Below the pieces are notes generated by a model that had not been told where the DNA came from, did no database searches, and saw only the letters and a program-made list of their open reading frames with translations. A stretch of DNA of 64,000 nt from a virus. Of the stretch, positions 2,396-37,822 are shown piece after piece. The translations under genes and the position numbers were made by a program. Positions within the stretch are counted from its first letter, which is position 1; every line of letters begins with the position of its first letter. The stretch spans positions 1-64,000 of the IMG/VR virus record IMGVR_UViG_3300045391_000912, one strand, 5' to 3'.

Positions 2396-5300
2396 TCAAC
2401 TGCTGTCCTGCCAGGCAAAACTCGGTGCGGAAGGCTCAGCGACGATCTCCACACCCTGGAACGTGGTAGCCATGCACTCGATCAGCGTCCACGTGGCTTG
2501 CTCCGCGTCTGCCTCCGGCACGAACACATCCAGCTCGTCGTGCACCGGCAACAGCACCGAGTTGCCCCATCGCGTCTTGCGCCACTTGACCAGCGCATCC
2601 ACCAGCAACTCCCGCGCCGTGCCCTGAATTGCGTAGTTAGGCGCCGAGTGTGGCCGCAGCGTGTCGAAGTGGATCAACCGGCCGCTGTAAGCCTGGAAGT
2701 GCGACTGCCCGTTCTTGACCGCGTTCCGGACGTTGTTCGACCAAGCGCTCAACTGCGGGGTCATGCCGTCCAGCGTGTTGATCACTGCCTGCGCCGCTTC
2801 CAGGCTGGTACCTGTCTGAGCTGCCAGAGCCTCCACACCCCCGCCGTAGAGCCTGCCGAACACCAGACGCTTAGCCACGTACCGGTGTTCCTTGGCTGGC
2901 TTGGGCCTGCCGGTCGGGTTGGACTCGGACACCTTGCTGGCCTCGGCGTTGTCACCCCACACCTGCCGGGCGATCTCCTCGTGGATGTCCCGACCGGCCG
3001 CGATGATGGCCTTCAGGTTCTCGTCCTGGCTAAGCGCCGCCGCGACCCTAAGCTCAACACCCGAGAAGTCAGCGCCGATCATGAGCTGGCCGGGATCGGC
3101 GGTGATACAGGCCCGGACACCCCCCTGGCGGCTTAGCTGCTGAAGGTTGGGTCTGACGCAGCTCATGCGGCCGGTGTTGGTTCCGAGCGTGTAGACCGTG
3201 GGTCGGGCCCTACCGTCGCCGTGTTCGCACAACACCCGATAGGGCTCCATGAACATGTTGATCACGGTGTTGTTGTGCCGGTACTCCAAGATCTTTTTGA
3301 CCAGTGGCCCAACCTCCTCGTGGAACTGAAGCGGTTCAAGCACCTCTTTAGCGGCCGAGATCTTGCCCTTCCGGTCACGAAGGTCGATTCCACGGGCTGT
3401 AAGCGCCTCTGCGACCTGTTTGGGGCTTCCGGGGTTCTCGATGCTGGGAGCCATGGAAAGTACGGCAGCGGCGGCCTCATCCCGCAAAGGGCGGTGCTTA
3501 GCCTGCATCGCCTTCACGTGCTCGTAGTCCAGCCGGACCCCGTACAAGGGCAGCTTGGCCGTCATGATCTGCACCAGGCGTTCGCGCGCCATGATCTCGT
3601 CCGGGATCCCCGGAAGCTCTTTGGCGATGGCGGCGGTGTCCAGAACGTCGCTGGAGGCGTACCGAACCATCGTTTCCGTCCCTGAGTCGGCCTGTGCCCA
3701 TCCAGAGCGCTCCACGGGGGTGGTTACCTCGGTTTCCTTCAACCAGCCGCCAGCGGCGAACATGGAGGCCCTAGCGGTGTCAGCGGGAGCCGCCGTGGCC
3801 CGTGGCCCGAGCACTTTCTCCCCGAGCTTCTTGAGACCTGGGTCGGCACCCGTGCTGGCCGGATCCGCGAGCTTGGCCTTGAGCGCGGTGTCGTGCATCC
3901 GCTCCCAGCCCGAGTCGTGGTCGATCAGGTGCGCGCTCGCCAGTGGTGCCAGGTCCGCCGTGGCCGAGTGGGCTTGCAGGTAAGCCGCCTCGCTTAGCAA
4001 CTCTCGGATCAGCTCAGCCTGGTCGGCCTTGGCCGGGTCGAACGTCACCGCGATCTGGTCGTCCCCTAGCTGGACGGTGCGGAGTTTGTAGTCCCGGTGT
4101 CCGATGGGGTAGCCGGAGGTCTCCACGTCCACGGTCAGCACACCGACGCCCGTTCGCCGCATGGCCTGCCGGACCGCCGTAGCCGCTTGCGTGAGGGTCA
4201 GCTCGATGACATTGCCGTCCCGATCGCAACCCGCCGGAAGCGCCACCTTGCGACCTTCGGCGTCGTGCAACTTGGCCAGCTTGGCTTCGCGCCTCTCCTC
4301 AAGCTTGGCCTGAGCCTTGATCGCCTTCAGCTCCGCGCGGGCATCCGTCTTGCTGATGCGCCGACGGTCTGCCCACACGGCCACTTGGTAGGCGTTGATG
4401 GGCTTTAACGGATCGTAGTCGTCCGGTAGCTCTAGGTCACCAAAAGGGGTTTTCCGTGGGTTAGTGGGTTCGGGAACTACCGGAGACGAACCCACTGGGG
4501 CCTGTTTTGGCTGCTCAGGCCCAGTTTTTTGATCAACTTCCGCTACTTCCGAGGCAACTTCCCTATTTCCTACTTCTCTACTCTCTTCTCTCTTGTGTGT
4601 TGTGTTGTTTTGTGTTGAGTAGTTTATAGTACTACTACTAACTATCTGACTATCTGAAGAAGAAGAAAAAACGGGGCCTGACCTGGTGTTTTTAGGCTCC
4701 GATTGTTCTTCACTTGAACCCACGGGAACTAGCGGGCCAACCGTCGGAGAGCTAGCGGAGTTCGGCGCCGGGGTGAACCCTGGGTTGAACAAACCACCCC
4801 CGCCGGAAATGATCAACGGGCGATAGACCTGATTTTTCTTAGGGCCAGCGTTGCGGATCGCGTCGTAACCCAACTTCCCGAGCGTTCGACCGAACATGGT
4901 TTCCGACGGGGCGGGGGACCTTTTGTACGCGGGCTGCATCTCGTGCCACGCCAGGAAAGCCCTGTGGAGCACCCGGCCGGAGGTTCCGTGCTCGTTGTGG
5001 ATGCACATCTCCGCGACCCACTCCACGATCGGATCCTGCCCCGAGACCATGTCGTCCATGGTGGTCTGGAGCGTGAACGGCGCCGAGGAGGTAAGGGCAG
5101 TGTCGGGGTTGGCCAACCAGGCGGCGCACTCGCGCATGAGCTTCGCCAGTACCCCCGGAGCCTCCTGGGTCCACACCGCCGGGGTAAGGGTCTGCCGTGC
5201 GGCGCGCACTAGGTCCCGGTCGGCTTCGCACGGGATGATCCGCATACGCGCCCGCAGCGCCGGGTCAGTGATGGGAGGCTCGTCGTTGGTGGTCATCACG

Positions 5301-7243
5301 AGGGTGTGCGTCGGGTCGAACGTGACCGGGTTGGCGCGCATGGCGTTACCGGTTAGCTGACCTCCACCGGTTAGCTGCTTGAGCCGTTCCGCCGCCAGGT
5401 GGCCCTTACGGGGACCCTCATCGATGAAACTCAACCGTCGGCCCTTGAGCGCGTACACCACCGAGGCGTGAGCGTTGTCGGCGCCAGCGAGAAGGCGGGG
5501 ATCGGCGGCGTGACCGTAAGAGCCGAGCACCTTGACCATGAGCGAGATCAGGGCCGTCTTACCGGTGCGCTCCGGCCCGTACAGCACGGGGATGGCGGCG
5601 TCCGGGTAGCCCGCTAGCGCGATGGACAGCACCCGCATGGCCCACGCCCTGACCTCCGGATCCGGGAACACCGTAGCCACGAAAGCGTCCCAAGCCGGAG
5701 TCTCGATGGGCGCCGGAAGGCATAGAGCCGACCTTAGGTGCGGAGTAGCTAGGTCGATTCGCGCCGGTACCGGAACATCACCGGAAGCCCTGAGGTCCCA
5801 CGCTTGGCCTCCGGCCCATAGAATTTCCGGGTTGGTGTCCAGCCTGCCGACCTCGATACCTCCGGGGTGGCCGGTGTCCTTGACGATGGACTTGAGCTTG
5901 CGCTCGATGGCGCCGGAAGGGCCACTGGTGAGGAACCTTGCGCGGGTCTTGGCCTGCCAGTTCTCCGCCGTGTAGTCGCTAGCGCTCTTAGGGAAGTCCG
6001 GGTCACCGGGTGGCATGAGCCTCGCTACCTGGGACGTTGCCCAGTCGGCCATGTCCTTGGTTTCACGCCATACGTTTGAGCCCCGGACCAGCCAGGTATC
6101 TGAATCGGTTCCGTAACGCAGGGCCGGGAGCATCCGAAGAGCCACCTGTTCGGCGAGTCCCTGATCGGTGCGGTCCGCCGAGGGGTCGAATGGGTGCAGG
6201 CCGATGGCCGAGTAAACGGTCCAGGTGGGGTCCTCAGGGTCCTCGCCCATGTCGCCGTCGAACTCACGCTTAGCCGCCTTAGCCCACCTAAGCTCGTCCT
6301 CGGGGGTGTAGACCGTGAACTTGCCCTTAGCTCCGTCTTTGAGCCCTTGGTCGATCCAGAGCTGGTCCTGTTCATCAGGGCCGTCCGGCCACACTTCGGT
6401 GACGGCGTCTTCCAGGCGCTCGCGGGCGTCGGTCTCGTCCAGGTACTCCCCGCCGACGTAACCACCTAGGGTGAACGCGGCCCTTAGCAGAACTTGCCGG
6501 AAGCCCGCGCCGGACTGAGGGTCGAACTCTTTGATCTCCAGGAGCTTGTTGGTGATGGCCCGCTCAGCCGATACCTGGGACTGGGGCTCGCGGTAGGAGA
6601 TGAAGTCGAACCACCACTGGTCCTTAGGGTCGTGGTCCGGTACGTCGAACTTGGAGCCGATGGATCCGCCCGCGTTGAGCCGAACCTCACGGACCTTAGC
6701 CGCCAGAGCTTCGTTGGAGGTGTCCTGAGGTCCATACTCTGCAAGTTTCACCAGGTCAGGGGCTTGCATCCAGCGGTAAGGGTAGAACTGGCCGTCTTCC
6801 TTGGACTTGCGCACGGTCGGCGCCAGGAACGCGAAGCCACGACTGGAACCGTCGGGCAGGCCGCTCTTGACGTCGATGCCGGGGAACACGTTGTCGCGGG
6901 ATCCGCAGTTCATGGACTTGACGAACGAGTGGAACCCGCCGGAGGGGGTGGACGCGACACCGTAGCTAAGGGGGATCATGCCGTCCAGGAAGGACAGATC
7001 GCCGTCGTTGCGGGGGTCCACGTCGAGCAGATCCAGGCCCTTACCCATGACCGCGCACAGGGCCATGCCGGGCTCCCAACGGTCCACGACGGCCGGGTCC
7101 GGGATTGTCTGCTGCCAGGCGGTGGGGAGGTTGAAGCCCACGGGGTGGTTGGGATTGGGCGGCGCCACGAAGATCGGAATCCCCGCCCTGGCCATCTCCC
7201 TTGCGATCTCTAGCGCTTGCTGTTGCTCTGGAGTCAAGTTCAC
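2396..7243 (-). CDS. fused replicase: prim-pol + P-loop primase/helicase (D5/P4-like) + 3'-5' exonuclease + family A DNA polymerase
   Basis: 1615-aa ORF with GTG start behind AAGGA. N-terminal prim-pol-like region. Walker A GPERTGKT. Exonuclease motif LTVDVETSGY. Pol A motifs DFSGVELRV, RYVAKRLVFGRLYGGG and LPVHDELD. Confidence 0.9.
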   Translation of the reverse strand: MNLTPEQQQALEIAREMARAGIPIFVAPPNPNHPVGFNLPTAWQQTIPDPAVVDRWEPGMALCAVMGKGLDLLDVDPRNDGDLSFLDGMIPLSYGVASTPSGGFHSFVKSMNCGSRDNVFPGIDVKSGLPDGSSRGFAFLAPTVRKSKEDGQFYPYRWMQAPDLVKLAEYGPQDTSNEALAAKVREVRLNAGGSIGSKFDVPDHDPKDQWWFDFISYREPQSQVSAERAITNKLLEIKEFDPQSGAGFRQVLLRAAFTLGGYVGGEYLDETDARERLEDAVTEVWPDGPDEQDQLWIDQGLKDGAKGKFTVYTPEDELRWAKAAKREFDGDMGEDPEDPTWTVYSAIGLHPFDPSADRTDQGLAEQVALRMLPALRYGTDSDTWLVRGSNVWRETKDMADWATSQVARLMPPGDPDFPKSASDYTAENWQAKTRARFLTSGPSGAIERKLKSIVKDTGHPGGIEVGRLDTNPEILWAGGQAWDLRASGDVPVPARIDLATPHLRSALCLPAPIETPAWDAFVATVFPDPEVRAWAMRVLSIALAGYPDAAIPVLYGPERTGKTALISLMVKVLGSYGHAADPRLLAGADNAHASVVYALKGRRLSFIDEGPRKGHLAAERLKQLTGGGQLTGNAMRANPVTFDPTHTLVMTTNDEPPITDPALRARMRIIPCEADRDLVRAARQTLTPAVWTQEAPGVLAKLMRECAAWLANPDTALTSSAPFTLQTTMDDMVSGQDPIVEWVAEMCIHNEHGTSGRVLHRAFLAWHEMQPAYKRSPAPSETMFGRTLGKLGYDAIRNAGPKKNQVYRPLIISGGGGLFNPGFTPAPNSASSPTVGPLVPVGSSEEQSEPKNTRSGPVFSSSSDSQIVSSSTINYSTQNNTTHKREESREVGNREVASEVAEVDQKTGPEQPKQAPVGSSPVVPEPTNPRKTPFGDLELPDDYDPLKPINAYQVAVWADRRRISKTDARAELKAIKAQAKLEERREAKLAKLHDAEGRKVALPAGCDRDGNVIELTLTQAATAVRQAMRRTGVGVLTVDVETSGYPIGHRDYKLRTVQLGDDQIAVTFDPAKADQAELIRELLSEAAYLQAHSATADLAPLASAHLIDHDSGWERMHDTALKAKLADPASTGADPGLKKLGEKVLGPRATAAPADTARASMFAAGGWLKETEVTTPVERSGWAQADSGTETMVRYASSDVLDTAAIAKELPGIPDEIMARERLVQIMTAKLPLYGVRLDYEHVKAMQAKHRPLRDEAAAAVLSMAPSIENPGSPKQVAEALTARGIDLRDRKGKISAAKEVLEPLQFHEEVGPLVKKILEYRHNNTVINMFMEPYRVLCEHGDGRARPTVYTLGTNTGRMSCVRPNLQQLSRQGGVRACITADPGQLMIGADFSGVELRVAAALSQDENLKAIIAAGRDIHEEIARQVWGDNAEASKVSESNPTGRPKPAKEHRYVAKRLVFGRLYGGGVEALAAQTGTSLEAAQAVINTLDGMTPQLSAWSNNVRNAVKNGQSHFQAYSGRLIHFDTLRPHSAPNYAIQGTARELLVDALVKWRKTRWGNSVLLPVHDELDVFVPEADAEQATWTLIECMATTFQGVEIVAEPSAPSFAWQDSS
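4555..4675 (-). repeat. AT-rich microsatellite-like tract inside the replicase ORF (inter-domain linker)
   Basis: Runs such as tctctt, tgtgttg, actactacta and gaagaagaagaaaaaa. Encodes SSSSDSQIVSSSTINYSTQNNTTHKREE. Composition differs sharply from the flanks. Confidence 0.8.
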
Positions 7244-17217: not shown

Positions 17218-17475
17218 TCACTTACCTTTCGTAGCGCAGACGATGCAGGTCTTAGGATTGTTGCCTCCGCAGTGCGGACAGTTAGTTGCCTCCGCAGTGC
17301 GGACAGTTAGCGGGCGACCTGCGATCCGGCTGAAGCTCGCTGCAAGGTGGCCAGCGGGTGTGGTCACGTCCGGTTCGTCGCCGCTGTCGTCGTCCACCAG
17401 CTCGTACCAGTAGTCGCCGACCATGACGAACCGATCGCCGTTATGCTCAGCGCCCATCGCGCAGTTGTCACTCAT
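17218..17475 (-). CDS. small zinc-ribbon protein (CPHC...CIVC)
   Basis: ORF track. Contains the 25-bp tandem duplication at 17261..17310. Confidence 0.55.
   Translation of the reverse strand: MSDNCAMGAEHNGDRFVMVGDYWYELVDDDSGDEPDVTTPAGHLAASFSRIAGRPLTVRTAEATNCPHCGGNNPKTCIVCATKGK
17261..17310. repeat. perfect 25-bp tandem duplication, each unit carrying the palindrome TCCGCAgTGCGGA
   Basis: TTGCCTCCGCAGTGCGGACAGTTAG occurs twice, head to tail. Confidence 0.95.
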
Positions 17476-18592
17476 ATTCGGTTCCGCCCTTACGGGTCAG
17501 GTACTCGGGGGACACCCACTTGGCGATCTTTCGGCCTCCGTAGACGCTCCGCTGCTCTGTGGCCGACCGGATGACGACACCCTCCCGCATGTGGTCGAGG
17601 AGCTTACGGCCGTCAGCGGAGGCAACCCAGGTGTGCCCGGAGACCTCTGCCGCAATTTCGTCCTGGATAAACCCGCCGGAGTAGACCGTCGGCACCTGAG
17701 GGATTCCATTACGGAGCATGAGCCCCTTGAAGTCCATCGCGTCCACCCATCCAGGTTCGTCGGGCGTGTCGTATTCCATCCAGCAGTCGAATGCCCGGAA
17801 ACCTAAGGTCTCGTCGCGGGCGGCTTCGTGGCCGTACTTGAGGTCTTGTACCCCGGCCCCGAAAATCTCCCCGAACAGGCCGATCTTGCACGCGCCCTCC
17901 TGCATGGCCATGCCCTGGAGCTTCATCGGCAGCAGGTTGTGCAGCACGGCCCGCCAGTAGAGATTATCGGGGTTGGGCTTGATGGCCAGGTTCTTAGCCC
18001 CGTGACCCTTAGAGCTGACGTAGACCTTAGCGTTGCCGCCATTCGCCGGGTCATGGATGTACGTGACTAAACACGCCGTCCCGTGGATCTTCTCGGTGAC
18101 GACGACGCGCTCTCCCCGATTGAACATCTTGGGGTAGCGCTGGTAGTGCTCGATGTCGATCCAGCGGACCAGGTCAGGGCACGGCTCGATCTCCCCGGAC
18201 ATGTGCACAGGGATCTCCGGCGTCCACTTCTCGATACCCAGGAACTCAGCCCAAGGCTTATACGTCGGTTCGTCATGCTTCTCCTCTGTGAACCACAGCC
18301 GATATACCGCCGTAGGTCGACACACGATGCCCTGGCTAAGCTCTCCCCGGAGGCGTACAGCCTTGACCCGGTTGGCCTGCTTACCTGCCAGCTTTCCCTC
18401 CAGGCCGAGTTCTTTGATCAACCCGGGTGGGAGGATGGCCTGTTCCGGGATGTACATGGCGTAGTCGCCGGTCTTGTACACACCCTTGGGCACGACGGCC
18501 CGGTACAGACCCACCTCAGCCAGCTCCAGCGCGTCGGCGTTCGGGTGCGGGAGGATGGTCAGCTTCTCGATCGTGCACTTGAACGTACTCAT
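17468..18592 (-). CDS. ATP-dependent RNA ligase with an N-terminal tRNA-binding-type OB domain (DraRnl/Rnl5-like architecture)
   Basis: Start ATG 18592 behind GGAG. N-terminal LPHPNADALELAEVG resembles the CsaA/EMAP-type tRNA-binding fold. Ligase motif I VTEKIHGT, plus FGEIFG and EGVVIRS...RKIAKWV. Confidence 0.7.
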   Translation of the reverse strand: MSTFKCTIEKLTILPHPNADALELAEVGLYRAVVPKGVYKTGDYAMYIPEQAILPPGLIKELGLEGKLAGKQANRVKAVRLRGELSQGIVCRPTAVYRLWFTEEKHDEPTYKPWAEFLGIEKWTPEIPVHMSGEIEPCPDLVRWIDIEHYQRYPKMFNRGERVVVTEKIHGTACLVTYIHDPANGGNAKVYVSSKGHGAKNLAIKPNPDNLYWRAVLHNLLPMKLQGMAMQEGACKIGLFGEIFGAGVQDLKYGHEAARDETLGFRAFDCWMEYDTPDEPGWVDAMDFKGLMLRNGIPQVPTVYSGGFIQDEIAAEVSGHTWVASADGRKLLDHMREGVVIRSATEQRSVYGGRKIAKWVSPEYLTRKGGTEYE

Positions 18593-18816
18593 GAGGGACT
18601 CCGTTGGTCTTGCGAGGTCAGGTGCCAGTTTTGGTGTTCGCACTGGTAGACGCGGTTTTCGTTGGTGTCGCGGTGGGATTTGTGCTTGCGCCGCACTTGC
18701 TTGAACTGAAGTTGGGACAGTGCGAACTTGGCGGCTAGCTCGTCCGCGTAGGTGAACTTCCCGCACGGACAACGCGGCACCCTAGGTTGCGGCACTCGTT
18801 GACGTCGGTTCGGCAT
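18589..18816 (-). CDS. small Cys-containing basic protein (75 aa)
   Basis: ORF track. Stop overlaps the ligase ATG (ATGA). The promoter-like element ends about 6 nt before its ATG. Confidence 0.55.
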   Translation of the reverse strand: MPNRRQRVPQPRVPRCPCGKFTYADELAAKFALSQLQFKQVRRKHKSHRDTNENRVYQCEHQNWHLTSQDQRSPS

Positions 18817-34214: not shown

Positions 34215-34289
34215 TGGGAGCGGGACCCGGACTTGAACCGGGATCGTACGGCTTATGAGGCCGCCAGGTTACCGTTACAACATCCCGCT
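34215..34289 (-). tRNA. tRNA-Met/Ile2 (CAT)
   Basis: Acceptor AGCGGGA/TCCCGCT, T arm CCCGG-TTCAAGT-CCGGG, anticodon loop CTCATAA. CCA is encoded. The D arm is irregular. Confidence 0.55.
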
Positions 34290-34309
34290 ACGTCAGCGTA
34301 CTACCTAGG

Positions 34310-34380
34310 CTAGGGCGATAGGACTCGAACCTATATTCAGGGAACCAAAATCCCTTGTCCTGCCATTGAACGACGCCCCA
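34310..34380 (-). tRNA. tRNA-Gln (TTG)
   Basis: Acceptor TGGGGCG/CGCCCTA, T arm ATAGG-TTCGAGT-CCTAT, anticodon loop TTTTGGT. Confidence 0.7.
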
Positions 34381-34388
34381 ATAAGCAA

Positions 34389-34422
34389 GGGTGCAGGGAC
34401 GCCTTGACCTCGCCCTGCACCC
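34389..34422 (-). terminator. 10-bp perfect hairpin inside the tRNA array
   Basis: GGGTGCAGGG / CCCTGCACCC, followed on the minus strand by TTGCTTATT. Either a terminator or a processing hairpin. Confidence 0.4.
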
Positions 34423-34470
34423 CCAGTGTCGGTGGCTAGTAGGTCAAGACTTCACCGTTGACACTGTTTG

Positions 34471-34545
34471 CTGCCGCCCCAGGGCTCGAACCTGGAAAGC
34501 TCCTGATTCAGAGTCAGGCGGGTCTGCCAGTTCCCCCATGCGGCA
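34471..34545 (-). tRNA. tRNA-Gln (CTG)
   Basis: Acceptor TGCCGCA/GGCGGCA (one mismatch), T arm CCAGG-TTCGAGC-CCTGG, anticodon loop CTCTGAA. Confidence 0.65.
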
Positions 34546-34558
34546 TTGATCTTGAACG

Positions 34559-34630
34559 TACTCCATACCGGATTTGAACCGGTACCCTCCTGATCGAGAG
34601 TCAGGCGTTCTGCCGTTGAACTAATGGAGC
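34559..34630 (-). tRNA. tRNA-Glu (CTC)
   Basis: Acceptor GCTCCAT/ATGGAGT, T arm ACCGG-TTCAAAT-CCGGT, anticodon loop CTCTCGA. Confidence 0.7.
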
Positions 34631-34631
34631 T

Positions 34632-34703
34632 TGGAGGCGATGACCGGGCTTGATCCGGTGTGCGTCAGCTTTGCAGGCCGCGCCGACACCTTGTCGCATC
34701 GCC
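34632..34703 (-). tRNA. tRNA-Cys (GCA)
   Basis: Acceptor GGCGATG/CATCGCC, T arm ACCGG-ATCAAGC-CCGGT, anticodon loop CTGCAAA. CCA is encoded. The D loop is very short. Confidence 0.55.
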
Positions 34704-34704
34704 T

Positions 34705-34778
34705 TGGTACCCCCGGTAGGAATCGAACCCACGTCTCAGGATTAAAAGTCCCGAGCTAAACCACTCAGCTACGGAGGC
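34705..34778 (-). tRNA. tRNA-Lys (TTT)
   Basis: Acceptor GCCTCCG/CGGGGGT, T arm GTGGG-TTCGATT-CCTAC, anticodon loop CTTTTAA. CCA is encoded. Confidence 0.75.
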
Positions 34779-34779
34779 T

Positions 34780-34855
34780 TGGTGCTCACGGAGAGAGTTG
34801 AACTCACACTGGCCGGGGTTTGAATCCGGTGCCTCTGCCGTTGGGCTACGTGAGC
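34780..34855 (-). tRNA. tRNA with Leu anticodon CAA but a short (5-nt) variable region
   Basis: Acceptor GCTCACG/CGTGAGC, T arm GTGAG-TTCAACT-CTCTC, anticodon loop TTCAAAC. A73 and CCA are encoded. Confidence 0.55.
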
Positions 34856-34861
34856 AAGAAG

Positions 34862-34944
34862 TCCCGCGCCGAGGAGTCGAACCTCGTGCCCCTAAGGGTG
34901 CTGGTTTACAGCCAGCCGGATGCGTCCACACGCCCACGCTCGGG
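34862..34944 (-). tRNA. tRNA-Tyr (GTA), long variable arm
   Basis: Anticodon arm GCTGG-CTGTAAA-CCAGC, T arm CGAGG-TTCGACT-CCTCG, acceptor CCCGAGC/GCGCGGG (one mismatch). Confidence 0.65.
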
Positions 34945-34998
34945 TTTGGGTCCACGCTTTTAGTTGGGAGCAGAGCCCGGACGCAGTAACTGCTCAGA

Positions 34999-35080
34999 GG
35001 CGGGTAAAAGAATCGAACTTTCAGGTTTCACCCTGGCCGGGGATTCGACGCCCGTTTGTGGACACACCACGCTACCCGCC
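34999..35080 (-). tRNA. tRNA-Ser (CGA), long variable arm
   Basis: Perfect acceptor GGCGGGT/ACCCGCC, T arm GAAAG-TTCGATT-CTTTT, anticodon loop GTCGAAT on a 4-bp stem. Confidence 0.55.
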
Positions 35081-35088
35081 ATTTAGAA

Positions 35089-35135
35089 GCCAGGTGGTGC
35101 TGGGATTTCGGGTCCCAAGACGCTGCACTCCTGGC
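35089..35135 (-). ncRNA. tRNA minihelix-like element (acceptor-like helix plus T-arm-like hairpin only)
   Basis: GCCAGG-A-GUGC ... GCAC-CA-CCUGGC encloses the hairpin UGGGA-CCCGAAA-UCCCA. There is no D or anticodon arm. Confidence 0.35.
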
Positions 35136-35184
35136 GACGCTACGGCATACACTCCCCCGTCTAAGGGCCGTCCGTAACGCGATG

Positions 35185-35267
35185 CGGAAAGCCGAGGTCC
35201 CGACCCCCAGGGTGTTACCCCCGTACGCGCTAGCAACGCGCCCCTGTCCCCGACAGGTTGACCTTCC
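35185..35267 (-). tRNA. tRNA-Ser (GCT), long variable arm, non-canonical T loop
   Basis: Acceptor GGAAGGT/GCTTTCC, anticodon arm GCGCG-TTGCTAG-CGCGT, variable arm GGG-TAACA-CCC, T arm TGGGG-GTCGGGA-CCTCG, G73. Confidence 0.55.
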
Positions 35268-35270
35268 CTG

Positions 35271-35344
35271 TACCACCGACCGGATTCGAACCGGTGTCTT
35301 CCGACTTGAAAGGCCGGAGGCTTAGACCACTAGCCGACGATGGC
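35271..35344 (-). tRNA. tRNA-Glu (TTC)
   Basis: Acceptor GCCATCG/CGGTGGT, T arm ACCGG-TTCGAAT-CCGGT, anticodon loop CTTTCAA. Confidence 0.7.
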
Positions 35345-35345
35345 T

Positions 35346-35440
35346 TGGTGAAGAGCTTGCCCTACTCCGACGATCTTCCTGGATGATCAGTCCAGTAGTT
35401 GCTTTCGTCGCCACCGATATCCTACCCAGGCAAGCCCCAC
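35346..35440 (-). ncRNA. 95-nt tRNA-like RNA ending in ACCA, closed by a 12-bp terminal helix, not a cloverleaf (E1)
   Basis: Sits 1 nt from each neighbouring tRNA. Terminal helix GUGGGGCUUGCC/GGCAAGCUCUUC. Internal hairpin CUGGA-CUGAUCA-UCCAG. No T arm. Confidence 0.4.
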
Positions 35441-35441
35441 G

Positions 35442-35513
35442 AGCCCCTTCGAGGAATCGAACCCCGGACCACCCGCTTACAAGGCGGAGGTTCTACCACT
35501 GAACTAAAGAGGC
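35442..35513 (-). tRNA. tRNA-Thr (TGT)
   Basis: Acceptor GCCTCTT/AAGGGGC, T arm CGGGG-TTCGATT-CCTCG, anticodon loop CTTGTAA. Confidence 0.7.
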
Positions 35514-35549
35514 AAGGTAGGCAGTATTAGAAAGCTTGCCCAGAGCTAG

Positions 35550-35622
35550 AGTCCCCACTCGGATTCGAACCGAGCCTCTCAGTTTGGAAGACTGATGTGC
35601 TATCCGCTGACACTACGGAGAC
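35550..35622 (-). tRNA. tRNA-Gly (TCC)
   Basis: Acceptor GTCTCCG/TGGGGAC, T arm CTCGG-TTCGAAT-CCGAG, anticodon loop CTTCCAA. Confidence 0.7.
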
Positions 35623-35679
35623 AGACGGTCGAGGTTTTTAGATTTTTAGCAGCAGAAACTCGACCAGAAAACTACTTCG

Positions 35680-35753
35680 TGGAGTCTAGGGGAATCGAAC
35701 CCCTCTAATCTTGCTTGCAAGGCAAGCGCCTTCCCCAGATGAGCTAAGACCCC
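35680..35753 (-). tRNA. tRNA-Ala (TGC)
   Basis: Acceptor GGGGTCT/AGACTCC with the G3:U70 identity pair, T arm AGGGG-TTCGATT-CCCCT, anticodon loop CTTGCAA. Confidence 0.8.
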
Positions 35754-35754
35754 A

Positions 35755-35831
35755 TGGGGTGGATGACCGGACTTGAACCGGCTTGGAACAGGTTCACAAC
35801 CTGCCGCCTCGACCACTTCAGCCTCATCCAC
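35755..35831 (-). tRNA. tRNA-His (GTG)
   Basis: Acceptor GTGGATG/CATCCAC, C73, CCA encoded, anticodon loop TTGTGAA. The base at -1 is U, not G. Confidence 0.7.
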
Positions 35832-35833
35832 AG

Positions 35834-35906
35834 CCGGTTAGGGAGGAGTCGAACCCCCGACGCTCGGTTCCGAAGACCGACGCTCTGTCCACTGAGCTAC
35901 TAACCG
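35834..35906 (-). tRNA. tRNA-Arg (TCG)
   Basis: Perfect acceptor CGGTTAG/CTAACCG, T arm GGGGG-TTCGACT-CCTCC, anticodon loop CTTCGGA. Confidence 0.7.
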
Positions 35907-35907
35907 A

Positions 35908-35982
35908 TGGTCGGTCCGGAGGGAGTCGAACCCCCGCGCGCCAGTTTAGGAAACTGCTGCTCTTCCTCTGAGCTACGAACCG
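35908..35982 (-). tRNA. tRNA-Arg (CCT)
   Basis: Acceptor CGGTTCG/CGGACCG, T arm GGGGG-TTCGACT-CCCTC, anticodon loop TTCCTAA. CCA is encoded. Confidence 0.65.
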
Positions 35983-35992
35983 ATCAATCACG

Positions 35993-36065
35993 CGATGACG
36001 AAGGGATTCGAACCCTCATAGCCCACCCTGACAAGGTGGTTCACTAACCGTTGTGATACGTCACC
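35993..36065 (-). tRNA. tRNA-Asp (GTC)
   Basis: Acceptor GGTGACG/CGTCATC, T arm GAGGG-TTCGAAT-CCCTT, anticodon loop TTGTCAG. Confidence 0.7.
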
Positions 36066-36075
36066 AAGACTTATG

Positions 36076-36146
36076 TACCCCCGGCTGGAATCGAACCAGC
36101 GTCTCAGGATTAAGAGTCCCGAGCTAAACCACTCAGCTACGGAGGC
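36076..36146 (-). tRNA. tRNA-Lys (CTT)
   Basis: Near-duplicate of the TTT isoacceptor. T arm GCTGG-TTCGATT-CCAGC, anticodon loop CTCTTAA. Confidence 0.75.
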
Positions 36147-36147
36147 T

Positions 36148-36225
36148 TGGTCCCCGCCCCAGGATTTGAACCTGGCACCTTCACTTCATCAGAGTGCTGC
36201 TCTACCAAGAATGAGCTAGACGGGG
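36148..36225 (-). tRNA. tRNA-Ile (GAT)
   Basis: Acceptor CCCCGTC/GGCGGGG, T arm CCAGG-TTCAAAT-CCTGG, anticodon loop CTGATGA. CCA is encoded. Confidence 0.65.
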
Positions 36226-36229
36226 AAAG

Positions 36230-36303
36230 TGCTTTCGGAGGGATTCGAACCCACACTGCCTAGTTCCTAAGACTAGTGCCTCTGCCAATTGGGCTACGAA
36301 AGC
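36230..36303 (-). tRNA. tRNA with Leu anticodon TAG but a short (5-nt) variable region
   Basis: Perfect acceptor GCTTTCG/CGAAAGC, anticodon arm CTAGT-CTTAGGA-ACTAG, T arm GTGGG-TTCGAAT-CCCTC, A73. Confidence 0.55.
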
Positions 36304-36304
36304 T

Positions 36305-36404
36305 TGGTGCGACATCATCAGTCTGCTGCGGGGCCGTGCCGACAACACACGGCTTTACGCCTTCAGTCCAGGTATCCGCAGGTCTAAGAGTCCGCAGACG
36401 TCAC
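36305..36404 (-). ncRNA. 100-nt tRNA-like RNA ending in ACCA, not a cloverleaf (E2)
   Basis: 7-bp acceptor-like helix GUGACGU/AUGUCGC plus A-CCA. Sits 1 nt from both tRNA-Phe and tRNA-Leu(TAG). Internal 6-bp hairpin GCCGUG/CACGGC. Direct repeat CUGCGGA occurs twice. No T or anticodon arm found. Confidence 0.4.
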
Positions 36405-36405
36405 G

Positions 36406-36480
36406 CCGCCACGCCTGGAGTCGAACCAGGGACCTCCGGGGTTTCAATCCGGCGCTCTTACCAAACTGAGCTACGAAGCG
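36406..36480 (-). tRNA. tRNA-Phe (GAA)
   Basis: Acceptor CGCTTCG/CGTGGCG (one mismatch), T arm CCTGG-TTCGACT-CCAGG, anticodon loop TTGAAAC. Confidence 0.6.
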
Positions 36481-36485
36481 TTGAA

Positions 36486-36578
36486 AGGCGCAGACTCGGA
36501 AGGTGAGGACTTTCGAGTTGGACCCGAGCACACAGAGCAAGACTGCCACTAATGTTTCTCAAGGTTTTGTCTGCGCCT
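36486..36578 (-). ncRNA. 93-nt structured element closed by a 10-bp helix, not a cloverleaf (E3)
   Basis: AGGCGCAGAC / GUCUGCGCCU closes the element. Inner helix CUCGG/CCGAG. Sits 2 nt after tRNA-Trp and 5 nt before tRNA-Phe. No CCA. Confidence 0.35.
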
Positions 36579-36580
36579 AG

Positions 36581-36652
36581 CACGCACTCAAGGAATCGAA
36601 CCTTGTCATCGCGGAGTTGGAAGCCGCTGCCGTCCCATTGGGCTAAGTGCGT
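36581..36652 (-). tRNA. tRNA-Trp (CCA)
   Basis: Perfect acceptor ACGCACT/AGTGCGT, T arm CAAGG-TTCGATT-CCTTG, anticodon loop TTCCAAC. Confidence 0.7.
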
Positions 36653-36658
36653 AAGTTT

Positions 36659-36735
36659 TGGTGCGGCCTTTTACCGACATGCCGAGGTCGTATATCGCGT
36701 TAACGGCGGGTGCTCTTCCACTGAGCTACCGGGGT
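36659..36735 (-). pseudogene. degenerate tRNA: intact 5' half joined to an unrelated 3' part that ends in ACCA
   Basis: Reads ACCCCGG-TA-GCTC-AGTGGAA-GAGC-A-CCCGC-CGTTAAC..., but no matching T arm or 3' acceptor strand follows. Confidence 0.45.
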
Positions 36736-36756
36736 GTATGGGCGCCTTATAACACT

Positions 36757-36790
36757 CACCCGTGTGGGATTCGAACCCACGGCCTCCCGC
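36757..36790 (-). pseudogene. tRNA 3'-half fragment
   Basis: Reads GCGGG-AGGCC-GTGGG-TTCGAAT-CCCAC-ACGGGTG. It starts at the 3' strand of the anticodon stem and lies directly after tRNA-Val. Confidence 0.55.
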
Positions 36791-36794
36791 CTCG

Positions 36795-36866
36795 TACCCC
36801 CAGATGGATTCGAACCACCGGCCCGCTGTTTGTAGGACAGCCGCTCTCCCGCTGAGCTATAGGGGT
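36795..36866 (-). tRNA. tRNA-Val (TAC)
   Basis: Acceptor ACCCCTA/TGGGGGT, T arm GGTGG-TTCGAAT-CCATC, anticodon arm GCTGT-CCTACAA-ACAGC (C rather than U at position 33). Confidence 0.6.
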
Positions 36867-36911
36867 ATAAAAGTCCCGCTCTACCAGCCATTACGCCTCG
36901 AACGGGACTAG
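36867..36911 (-). pseudogene. scrambled tRNA remnant
   Basis: 7-bp stem AGTCCCG/CGGGACT. Contains a D-arm-like TGGTAGAGC and an anticodon-stem-like GGGACTTTTA fused to the start of tRNA-Val. Confidence 0.4.
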
Positions 36912-36984
36912 CTGGTCTGGCAGGGTTCGAACCTACACCTGACTCCTTAACAGGGAGCAGCTCTGCCAATTGAGCTACAGACCA
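36912..36984 (-). tRNA. tRNA-Asn (GTT)
   Basis: Perfect acceptor TGGTCTG/CAGACCA, T arm GTAGG-TTCGAAC-CCTGC, anticodon loop CTGTTAA. Confidence 0.7.
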
Positions 36985-37035
36985 AAGATCACTGTGGAGT
37001 TTTCACTGCTACACGCGGCGCGTAGGACCGCAAAG

Positions 37036-37109
37036 TCGGGATAGCACGACTCGAACGTGCGGCCTCCAGCTCCCAAAGCAGGCGCTCTAACCAACTGAGC
37101 TACATCCCG
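37036..37109 (-). tRNA. tRNA-Pro (TGG)
   Basis: Acceptor CGGGATG/TATCCCG, T arm GCACG-TTCGAGT-CGTGC, anticodon loop TTTGGGA. Confidence 0.65.
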
Positions 37110-37213: not shown

Positions 37214-37822
37214 TTACTGTGAAGCGTTGCCGCTCTCGGAGCTGGAAGCGTCCCCGGCGTCCTGACCAGCGGGTGCGGGCACGTCGCTGCTGGTGTCAGG
37301 GGCCTGGTCGGCTCCACTGTCGCTCTCGTCCGGGAAGTGAGTCACCGGAAGCGGGTCCGCGCCTGCGACCGGGAAGGTCTGCGGGTCACCCGAGTTAACG
37401 GGCTCACCATCGGCGGGAGGCTCTGTCGACTCAACCTCGGGGTACTTGTTGGCCACGGCCCGAAGCTTCTCGCTGTGGGCCCGGATCTTGTCGGCGACAG
37501 ACTGGTCTCGACCCTTGAGCTGCGAGGCCAGATCGTCAAGATCCTGAGCGATCTCGTTGGTGATCTGGTCTGCCTCGGCCAGAGCGTCATCTACGGCGGA
37601 CATATGTTCCTCCATGTTGGTGATCGAGTCCCAGATGGGACGGTTTGCTGCCTGGATCGCGCGGCCCACCAGATCCTTGACGTACCTGCGGCTCACCAGC
37701 ACGAAGCTGTCAAACCACTCGGGGGATAGAGGATCCGCGCACTGGGCTTCGTACCTGAGTTCGTCCAGGTGCCAACCCAATGGGTCGTTGGGATCTCCGT
37801 GAGACCAGCGGTTCTCTGCCAC
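37214..37822 (-). CDS. hypothetical protein with an acidic disordered C-terminus (202 aa)
   Basis: ORF track. GTG start. Confidence 0.65.
   Translation of the reverse strand: MAENRWSHGDPNDPLGWHLDELRYEAQCADPLSPEWFDSFVLVSRRYVKDLVGRAIQAANRPIWDSITNMEEHMSAVDDALAEADQITNEIAQDLDDLASQLKGRDQSVADKIRAHSEKLRAVANKYPEVESTEPPADGEPVNSGDPQTFPVAGADPLPVTHFPDESDSGADQAPDTSSDVPAPAGQDAGDASSSESGNASQ

Follow-up and report, generated by a model that had tools for sequence, protein, structure and literature searches.

Between the genes for tRNA-Thr(UGU) and tRNA-Glu(UUC) in the transfer RNA (tRNA) array of a tailed phage lies a 95-nucleotide (nt) element, here called E1, that is not a tRNA and carries the ends of one. 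The array belongs to a stretch of 64,000 nt (positions 1 to 64,000 of IMG/VR record IMGVR_UViG_3300045391_000912), which we refer to as the window. Judging from its sequence, we think it reasonably probable that E1 is a small-RNA gene of non-tRNA type, specific to its lineage, that is carried along in the array and is released by RNase P. E1 carries only the processing signals of the "top half" of a tRNA: a helix of 12 layers, a closing pair like G1-C72, a discriminator like A73 and an encoded CCA. The first-pass annotation of this DNA had suggested a processed non-coding RNA that mimics tRNA termini, and this is still the best reading, on the basis of a non-cloverleaf element with tRNA-like ends and tRNA-like packing.

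E1 has the ends and the packing of a tRNA gene

E1 is encoded on the minus strand, as is the whole array (34215-37109, 2.9 kb, flanked by tail and lysis genes), and reads 5'-GUGGGGCUUGCC...GGCAAGCUCUUCACCA-3' (full sequence GUGGGGCUUGCCUGGGUAGGAUAUCGGUGGCGACGAAAGCAACUACUGGACUGAUCAUCCAGGAAGAUCGUCGGAGUAGGGCAAGCUCUUCACCA). As had been annotated, a single nucleotide separates it from each of its neighbours (C at 35441 and A at 35345), and its last four letters, read directly at 35346-35349, are ACCA. ARAGORN put tRNA-Thr at 35441-35513 and tRNA-Glu at 35270-35344, and Rfam ended tRNA-Thr at 35442, which leaves the C as a spacer. A single nucleotide is also the gap between many genes of the array, in which ARAGORN called 23 tRNAs and Rfam 21-22. 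Nine elements of the array encode their CCA: tRNA-Met, Lys(UUU), Leu(CAA), His, Arg(CCU), Ile, a non-canonical tRNA-Cys, E1, and a second non-tRNA element, E2, described below. In all nine exactly one A or U comes after the CCA, and in eight of them the next tRNA gene then begins; the exception, tRNA-Met, is the last element and is followed by the spacer that closes the array. Array tRNAs without an encoded CCA have trailers of variable length. Because E1 shares this arrangement of CCA, one A or U and next tRNA, it is laid out like a CCA-type tRNA gene.

The termini of E1 pair in one helix (P1) that joins nt 1-12 to nt 80-91 in the layers G1-C91, U2xU90, G3.U89, G4-C88, G5.U87, G6-C86, C7-G85, U8-A84, U9-A83, G10-C82, C11-G81 and C12-G80. 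A terminal helix of 12 base pairs (bp) with one U-U and three G-U pairs had been annotated; both the helix and the U-U mismatch are real, but next to nine Watson-Crick pairs we found two G-U pairs, not three. Twelve layers is the length of a tRNA acceptor stem stacked on its T stem. P1 forms part of the minimum free energy (MFE) structure, with pair probabilities of 0.92-1.0 for the inner ten pairs and of 0.59-0.70 for G1-C91 and G3.U89. Compared with a tRNA, E1 has an acceptor stem running from G1-C91 to C7-G85 with one U-U, and then A92 and C93-C94-A95. Compared with a minihelix substrate of RNase P, it has the coaxial helix of ~12 bp, a G+1 paired to a C72-like base and a single-stranded RCCA.

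We estimated how often such termini would arise by chance. Among 200,000 shuffles, at least 11 of 12 terminal pairs together with a 4-nt tail occurred with p=1.5e-4, and with p=1.2e-3 when a tail of any length from 0 to 6 nt was permitted; the ACCA tail adds a factor of ~1/256 on top of the former value. The helix is significant only because both of its ends are fixed by the flanking tRNAs, since a descriptor with free ends ("at least 11/12 pairs + NCCA") is common in this GC-rich DNA, at 0.63 per kb. The two G-U pairs turn into A-C mismatches on the plus strand, so that the structure is specific to the strand that encodes the tRNAs. The parts of E1 and its surroundings are listed in Table 1.

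Table 1. Coordinates in the window of E1, its parts and its neighbours
Feature	Position	Strand	Remarks
E1, whole 95-nt element	35346..35440	-	G1 = 35440, A95 = 35346; not tRNA/tmRNA; 94/95 identical in L168:3049-3143
1-nt spacer C	35441	-	between tRNA-Thr discriminator U73 and G1 of E1
1-nt spacer A	35345	-	between E1 CCA and G1 of tRNA-Glu(UUC)
5' strand of 12-layer terminal helix P1, GUGGGGCUUGCC	35429..35440	-	pair probabilities 0.59-1.0; anchored shuffle p=1.5e-4
3' strand of P1, GGCAAGCUCUUC	35350..35361	-	holds U89 and U87, partners in the G3.U and G5.U wobbles
Single-stranded 3' tail ACCA	35346..35349	-	discriminator-like A92 and encoded CCA
18-nt 5' side of internal loop/junction, UGGGUAGGAUAUCGGUGG	35411..35428	-	sole variable site relative to L168: A21 (35420) to G
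Candidate P2 5' strand CGACGA	35405..35410	-	overlaps GACGAAAG (35402-35409); pair probability only 0.09
Candidate P2 3' strand UCGUCG	35368..35373	-	complementary to CGACGA
Candidate hairpin P3 CUGGA-CUGAUCA-UCCAG	35379..35395	-	5 bp, 7-nt loop; in MFE structure; pair probability 0.24
Upstream neighbour tRNA-Thr(UGU)	35442..35513	-	ARAGORN, Rfam; no encoded CCA
Downstream neighbour tRNA-Glu(UUC)	35270..35344	-	ARAGORN, Rfam; slot upstream varies among related arrays
9-nt direct-repeat copy of E1 3' strand, GGGCAAGCU	35533..35541	-	in spacer upstream of tRNA-Thr; conserved in L168

Part of the 3' strand of P1 recurs close by. The 9-nt direct repeat, AGCTTGCCC on the plus strand, lies at 35354-35362 within E1 and at 35533-35541 in the 35-nt spacer upstream of tRNA-Thr, and both copies are conserved in the relative L168 introduced below. 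When a 288-nt precursor is folded, the upstream copy pairs with the 5' strand of E1 and brackets tRNA-Thr. The repeat could reflect an alternative conformation of the precursor, a scar of duplication or chance.

E1 matches no known RNA family

Inside the terminal helix, the first-pass annotation had described a CGACGA/UCGUCG helix (candidate P2) and a hairpin, CUGGA-CUGAUCA-UCCAG (candidate P3). Both complementarities are present, but they are not favoured thermodynamically: the structure that combines them reaches -27.2 kcal/mol, compared to -30.6 for the MFE, the pair probabilities are 0.09 for P2 and 0.24 for P3, and the alternative preferred for the interior pairs GAUAUC with GAUCGUC. The "anticodon-like" loop of P3 has U at "33" but C, a pyrimidine, at "37", and we would take the hairpin as weak evidence of likeness to an anticodon arm.

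Judged by the defining features for which we searched, E1 does not appear to belong to the tRNA, transfer-messenger RNA (tmRNA) or YrlA families. The annotated lack of a T arm and of a cloverleaf was borne out by ARAGORN, which made no call in its standard, relaxed (-ps80), intron and tmRNA modes. Its metazoan-mitochondrial mode at an 80% threshold gave two low-threshold calls, an mtRNA-Ala and an mtRNA-Ser on the opposite strand, that we treated as noise. Rfam 15, run on an isolated 116-nt stretch at E<=10, returned no match to tRNA (RF00005), tRNA-Sec (RF01852), the other models of the clan, tmRNA or Y RNA. An ordinary or odd tRNA was hence rejected, ARAGORN and Rfam both being negative (the latter at the gathering threshold as well as at E<=10). 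A tmRNA was rejected too: there is no T arm, ARAGORN -m and the tmRNA models of Rfam were negative, and the internal frames have no tmRNA-like tag end.

Local alignments against shuffled sequences gave no significant sign of tRNA ancestry either. The proposal of a heavily decayed tRNA-Ile found no support, the similarity being insignificant (z=-0.7), and none of the tRNAs of its own array is significantly similar to E1 (z<=1.9). Among 171 tRNAs from related and other actinophage arrays, the best match (z=3.5) aligned P3 with the anticodon arm of a tRNA-Phe and is within multiple-testing noise. For an antisense target within the window, the longest complementarity to E1 was 11 nt, no more than chance predicts. 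E1 also matches L001 over 15 nt, but these lie inside a tail-fibre coding sequence and the match was discarded.

E1 is retained in one close relative, and its slot is variable in others

We found only one homolog of E1. Searches of 50,697 phage records with megablast and blastn found nothing similar, blastn (word 11, E<=10) giving only 29-nt chance matches in coding regions of mycobacteriophages. E1 was not found in plasmids, its exact 20-22-mers had no match in IMG/VR and GTDB genomes, and none of 82 protein-anchored loci from IMG/VR and metagenomes (80 loci in the latter) contains it. The homolog was reached through an exact look-up, among Logan contigs, of the protein encoded just upstream of the array (37214-37822). 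This contig, L168 (Logan SRR24786891), spans the array at ~93% identity and holds E1 at 3049-3143 with 94 of 95 positions identical; the sole difference, A21 to G, falls in the 5' internal region. With filters off, a covariance model of E1 retrieved only the L168 copy from 83 kb of related and other actinophage arrays.

The comparison with L168 is informative about the neighbours of E1. E1, tRNA-Glu and the following 400 nt are near-identical, while tRNA-Thr and tRNA-Gly differ at ~20/73 and ~26/74 positions (27-35%) and one spacer is deleted. E1 has therefore been kept while the adjoining tRNA-Thr and tRNA-Gly alleles diverged, and so behaves as a discrete, retained module. Along 34756-36225 the two arrays form a mosaic whose units are single genes: the majority of the tRNAs are identical, but diverged alleles replace tRNA-Gly(UCC) and tRNA-Thr(UGU). 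The deleted spacer measures 56 nt, and a gene for an HNH endonuclease adjoins the array of L168. Such a mosaic is consistent with gene-by-gene exchange in tRNA arrays.

Through homologs of the 37214-37822 protein (62-67% identity) we reached syntenic 21-tRNA arrays (L177-L181), in which E1 is absent, also by covariance model search. In these arrays the slot upstream of tRNA-Glu(UUC) holds tRNA-Gly(GCC), and in L178 and L179 it also holds an unrelated non-tRNA element of 132 nt with a 7-bp terminal stem and a UCCA+A end. These differing occupants indicate that the slot is variable and that non-tRNA RNAs ending like tRNAs have come to occupy it more than once.

A passenger RNA predicted to be released by RNase P

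RNase P, the CCA-adding enzyme and 3' exonucleases read the top half of a tRNA, and E1 would probably be excised by the tRNA-processing enzymes of the cell, as happens to some other small RNAs of phages. The whole array would be transcribed as one precursor; a scan revealed no sigma-70-type promoter-like site within it, nor any convincing terminator (two terminator-like matches, where shuffles predict 2.7). A cut by RNase P 5' of G1 would release E1 and also generate the tRNA-Thr 3' end (...U73-C), to be completed by the CCA-adding enzyme. The RNase P cut at the 5' end of tRNA-Glu would leave E1-ACCA-A, whose extra A would be removed by a 3' exonuclease. The outcome would be a 95-nt RNA with a tRNA-like end, resistant to exonucleases and open to CCA repair. 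The sequence shows the anatomy, packing, statistical improbability, strand specificity and lack of a cloverleaf described above; every enzymatic step and the accumulation of a stable RNA are inferred. The body (nt 13-79), whose fold is weakly determined, may provide a surface for protein binding, act as a decoy or be of little importance.

There is precedent for such processing. Substrates of bacterial RNase P include 4.5S RNA, tmRNA and phage-induced RNAs (PMC4919922), and in Mycobacterium smegmatis YrlA is cleaved by RNase P and has CCA added to it in vivo (PMC4201824). RNAC and RNAD of phage T4 originate in the tRNA region of that phage, and their biological role is still unknown (PMC3014915).

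Several observations weigh against release by RNase P as a small-RNA gene. E1 has no T loop, which normally contributes to binding by bacterial RNase P, and the U2xU90 mismatch together with two wobbles weakens the end of its helix. In a minor alternative register G1-G6 are paired with C88-C93, only CA is left unpaired and part of the ACCA is sequestered, while the MFE structure of the full precursor pairs the 5' strand of E1 with the upstream spacer. As a whole the element folds with a z-score of only -1.08 relative to shuffles, its interior structure being ambiguous. A single near-identical homolog yields no covariation, and the A21 to G change is uninformative. Lastly, terminal hairpins are fairly common in the inter-tRNA spacers of actinophage arrays, so the pattern may partly reflect general array architecture: hairpins anchored at tRNA borders and scoring at least 11/12 are found in 4/53 inter-tRNA gaps of other actinophage arrays, against ~0.2 expected from a back-of-envelope calculation.

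Alternative readings

E1 could be a relic of processing punctuation, derived from a former tRNA or from a hairpin arisen de novo, that is kept only for the 3' maturation of tRNA-Thr and for the register of the array and has no function in trans. We hold this to be unlikely, though the likeliest of the rival readings. In its favour, the termini alone are statistically exceptional and the interior is no better than random; tRNA-Thr does not encode its CCA and has a trailer of just 1 nt before E1; related arrays fill the slot with a real tRNA-Gly(GCC) (L177) or with another element ending like a tRNA (L178); and there are faint tRNA-like fragments, namely GCCUGGGUAGGAUAUC, which resembles a D arm, and a hairpin that matches the anticodon arm of a tRNA-Phe at 16/20 positions. 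However, no similarity to a tRNA is significant after multiple testing, and a decaying tRNA would not spontaneously gain five extra pairs, at positions 8-12 with the former 3' strand of the T stem. Moreover, the other tRNAs of the array mature without such an element, even across unstructured spacers. E1 could also be a chance spacer, or a feature of the DNA or of the antisense strand such as a plus-strand terminator, without any RNA role on the tRNA strand. P3 is indeed flagged as terminator-like on the plus strand, and descriptors of a terminal helix plus NCCA are common in this DNA when unanchored. Yet the terminator-like matches do not exceed the shuffle expectation (2 vs 2.7), the anchored helix has p=1.5e-4 even before ACCA is counted, the plus strand breaks the helix at the G-U pairs, and the layout equals that of CCA-type tRNAs, all of which makes this the least credible reading that we weighed.

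Another candidate is a Y RNA of the YrlB type, in which a stem bound by Ro60/Rsr (CGACGA/UCGUCG with GACGAAAG) would be held in a tRNA-like outer helix and would partner a YrlA-like module 1.3 kb upstream. The GACGAAAG motif fits the published loose motif GNCGAAN0-1G (PMC4201824) and, like its counterpart in the Rfam YrlA consensus, sits on the 5' strand of a 6-bp stem that leads into a loop; a YrlA-like module is present in the same array, and actinophages that encode Ro (Sixama, Phabba) interleave Y RNAs with tRNAs. But background DNA contains the motif with a 6-bp stem at a rate of 0.34 per kb, p being ~0.03-0.05 for E1, and P2 has a pair probability of just 0.09. To obtain specific models we went from the Ro-like protein of Gordonia phage Sixama to Rsr homologs, then to 80 genomic Rsr loci and to 60 actinobacterial YrlA RNAs upstream of Rsr, whose Rsr-binding module has the consensus GGGCCGRAG-N4-5-UCGGUUAYC. 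This signature (GGGCCGRAG...UCGGUUAYC) is absent from E1; hidden Markov models of the 5' and 3' Rsr-binding modules of the 60 RNAs do not match it at E<=100, and a covariance model (57 sequences) that finds the phage YrlAs (Phabba 94 bits, Sixama 85 bits) finds nothing on E1 at E<=10. Neither did we find a TROVE/Ro protein, the gene for which would be expected on the same strand within a few kb of a YrlA, among 27 open reading frames (ORFs) of the 64-kb window scanned with Pfam or PHROGs (17 of them with Pfam; each minus-strand ORF of at least 400 amino acids covered by at least one library). A Y RNA is thus very improbable.

Minihelices with G3:U70 are substrates of alanyl-tRNA synthetase (AlaRS), and tmRNA uses the same identity. 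E1 could accordingly be a natural alanine-accepting minihelix or acceptor-end decoy, i.e. a substrate of AlaRS, or of toxins or enzymes that act on acceptor ends, which it would titrate during infection. It has the equivalent of G3.U70 (G3.U89), of A73 (A92), a CCA and 12 layers in the favoured register; among the 23 tRNAs of the array G3.U70 is found in tRNA-Ala only, and the RNA ligase gene of the phage suggests a conflict over tRNA integrity. Against this, position 2:71 is a U-U mismatch and not G-C; a G-U pair at position 3 is not unlikely when two of the 12 positions are occupied by such pairs; E2, of the same design, has G3-C70; and E1 offers EF-Tu or SmpB-type partners no T arm and has no tag ORF with a tmRNA-like end. 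We consider this reading improbable. Slightly less doubtful, if still speculative, is the notion that E1 and E2 form an undescribed class of "acceptor-arm-only" tRNA mimics, that is, minihelices excised by RNase P with a CCA end that act as decoys or sponges to protect the phage tRNA pool. Candidate targets would be AlaRS, the CCA-adding enzyme and toxins of the acceptor end such as nucleotidyltransferases of the MenT type, the end of E1 showing the G3.U70/A73 alanine identity.

Comparison with known systems

With release by RNase P as the favoured reading, E1 most resembles, by analogy, the passenger RNAs of phage tRNA clusters and the hairpin-type substrates of RNase P. Synthetic minihelices of acceptor and T stem are likewise substrates of this enzyme. 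Natural hairpin-type substrates (pre-4.5S RNA and phage-induced regulatory RNAs; PMC4919922) share with E1 a long terminal helix, a 3' RCCA, a G+1 and the absence of a cloverleaf. They are not embedded among tRNAs, though, and the helix of E1 is closed by a ~67-nt body instead of a T loop or short loop; its cleavage is a prediction. Among passenger RNAs, T4 RNAC and RNAD (species 1 and 2 RNAs) are small non-tRNA RNAs co-transcribed with the phage tRNA genes among which they lie (PMC3014915), and E1 is likewise inside its cluster and co-oriented with it. Unlike E1, which is predicted from sequence, the T4 RNAs have been detected experimentally; E1 shows no sequence homology to them (blastn, 50,697 phage records), and the host phylum and the lengths differ.

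YrlA and the Y RNAs (Rfam RF02553) are also tRNA-mimicking non-coding RNAs and are often found between tRNAs in actinophage arrays. E1 differs from them in that it lacks both the module of T and D arms and the Rsr module of the form GGGCCGRAG...UCGGUUAYC, goes unmatched by the Rfam and custom models, and mimics only the stack of acceptor and T stems. tmRNA, often carried by actinophage arrays (Rey, Sixama, Phabba), has a tRNA-like domain with a G-rich 5' end, a wobble of the G3.U70 type, A73 and CCA, as E1 has, but E1 lacks a T arm and pseudoknots as well as a tag frame with a hydrophobic tail.

Other unusual elements of the array and its genome

Other non-tRNA elements are found in the same array, all on the minus strand. 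E2 (36304-36404, 101 nt), between tRNA-Phe and tRNA-Leu(UAG), is not a tRNA and has a design like that of E1, with a GUG start, a terminal helix of 8 bp, a 2x2 mismatch and 3 bp, and an ACCA + A end. It is 97-99% conserved in L168, L169 and L170, and its G6.U pair is A6-U in L168. The stretch CUGGACUGA that E1 and E2 have in common is out of structural register and was set aside as probably due to chance. E3 (36481-36579, 99 nt), between tRNA-Trp and tRNA-Phe, has a 10-bp terminal helix (AGGCGCAGAC/GUCUGCGCCU) and a UUCAA tail without CCA. It is 100% identical in L168, and similar ...UUCAA(U) tails end the Y-RNA-like spacers of the Phabba and Rey arrays.

The YrlA-like module (36653-36793) has the permuted architecture of a tRNA-like domain: a T arm (GUGGGUUCGAAUCCCAC), a stem-loop and a D arm (UAGCUCAGUGGAAGAGC), closed by GGCGGG/CCCGCC. 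It scores 33 bits with the Rfam YrlA model, below the gathering threshold, and 30.8 bits with the custom actinobacterial model; with the latter, junctions between adjacent tRNAs reach 28 bits, so that the score alone is weak. It has a homolog in mycobacteriophage Rey (L083:1137-1230), and its counterpart in L168 (1603-1722) shows a compensatory change in the T stem, from GUGGG/CCCAC to CUGGG/CCCAG. No obvious Rsr-binding module was seen in it and no Ro gene in the window.

Some probable tRNAs of the array are themselves unusual. A probable non-canonical tRNA-Cys(GCA) at 34632-34703, missed by ARAGORN and Rfam, would be the only tRNA for Cys in the array. Its acceptor stem of 7 bp (GGCGAUG/CAUCGCC) is combined with a very small D arm, a bulged stem that bears the anticodon loop CUGCAAA, an arm resembling a T arm (CCGGAUCAAGCCCGG) and a U73-CCA + A end. 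The apparent gap at 34945-35269 (325 nt) is highly structured and 100% conserved in L168. Its 5' ~85 nt look like a non-canonical tRNA-Ser(GCU), the homolog of which is called tRNA-Ser(gct) in L178:9339-9422. At 34999-35083 it resembles a tRNA-Ser(CGA) with a long variable arm (24.6 bits with the Rfam tRNA-Sec model), and ~100 nt of unexplained stem-loops lie between the two Ser-like parts. The 89-nt spacer between two tRNA-Gln genes (34381-34469) forms two strong hairpins (-39 kcal/mol), the second followed by CUUGCUUAU; most of it is gone in L168, where 13 nt separate the two genes. It could be an internal attenuator or a processing site.

Other actinophage arrays hold non-tRNA RNAs between their tRNAs as well: Rey (L083) at 1577-2000, Sixama (L084) at 2167-2541 and 2599-2678, and Phabba (L086) at 5830-6003. 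Mycobacterium phage Rey has a GOLLD RNA (182 bits), and Gordonia phage Sixama has four copies of a GGCCGAAG...CGGUUAUC module adjoining its Ro-like gene.

The window represents a high-GC tailed phage with genes for terminase, portal, capsid, tape measure, tail proteins, endolysin, a primase-polymerase and an RNA ligase. Its nearest isolated relatives, Gordonia phage Octobien14 and mycobacteriophages such as Tourach, Archie, Rumpelstiltskin and Faith1, share only ~45% portal identity with it. The RNA ligase gene (17468-18772, minus strand) combines Pfam RNA_ligase (PF09414) with the PHA02142 OB-fold and belongs to PHROG 968, which suggests repair of tRNA or other RNA during infection.

Implications

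The usual annotation of a phage tRNA array is a list of its tRNAs, and what lies between them is ignored. The array studied here contains at least four non-tRNA elements of tRNA size (E1, E2, E3 and the YrlA-like module), of which E1 is the cleanest case of an RNA that retains only the processing signals of the acceptor and T stems. Even if it were merely a processing relic, E1 would still show how the packing of an array constrains the evolution of its spacers. Should E1 prove to be processed and stable, the few phage small RNAs that mature through the tRNA machinery (T4 RNAC/RNAD and YrlA) would be joined by a new type. In that case E1 would offer a simple natural substrate with which to establish the minimal in vivo determinants of RNase P cleavage and CCA maintenance, and would bear on whether mimics of the acceptor end serve phages in the conflict over intact tRNAs.

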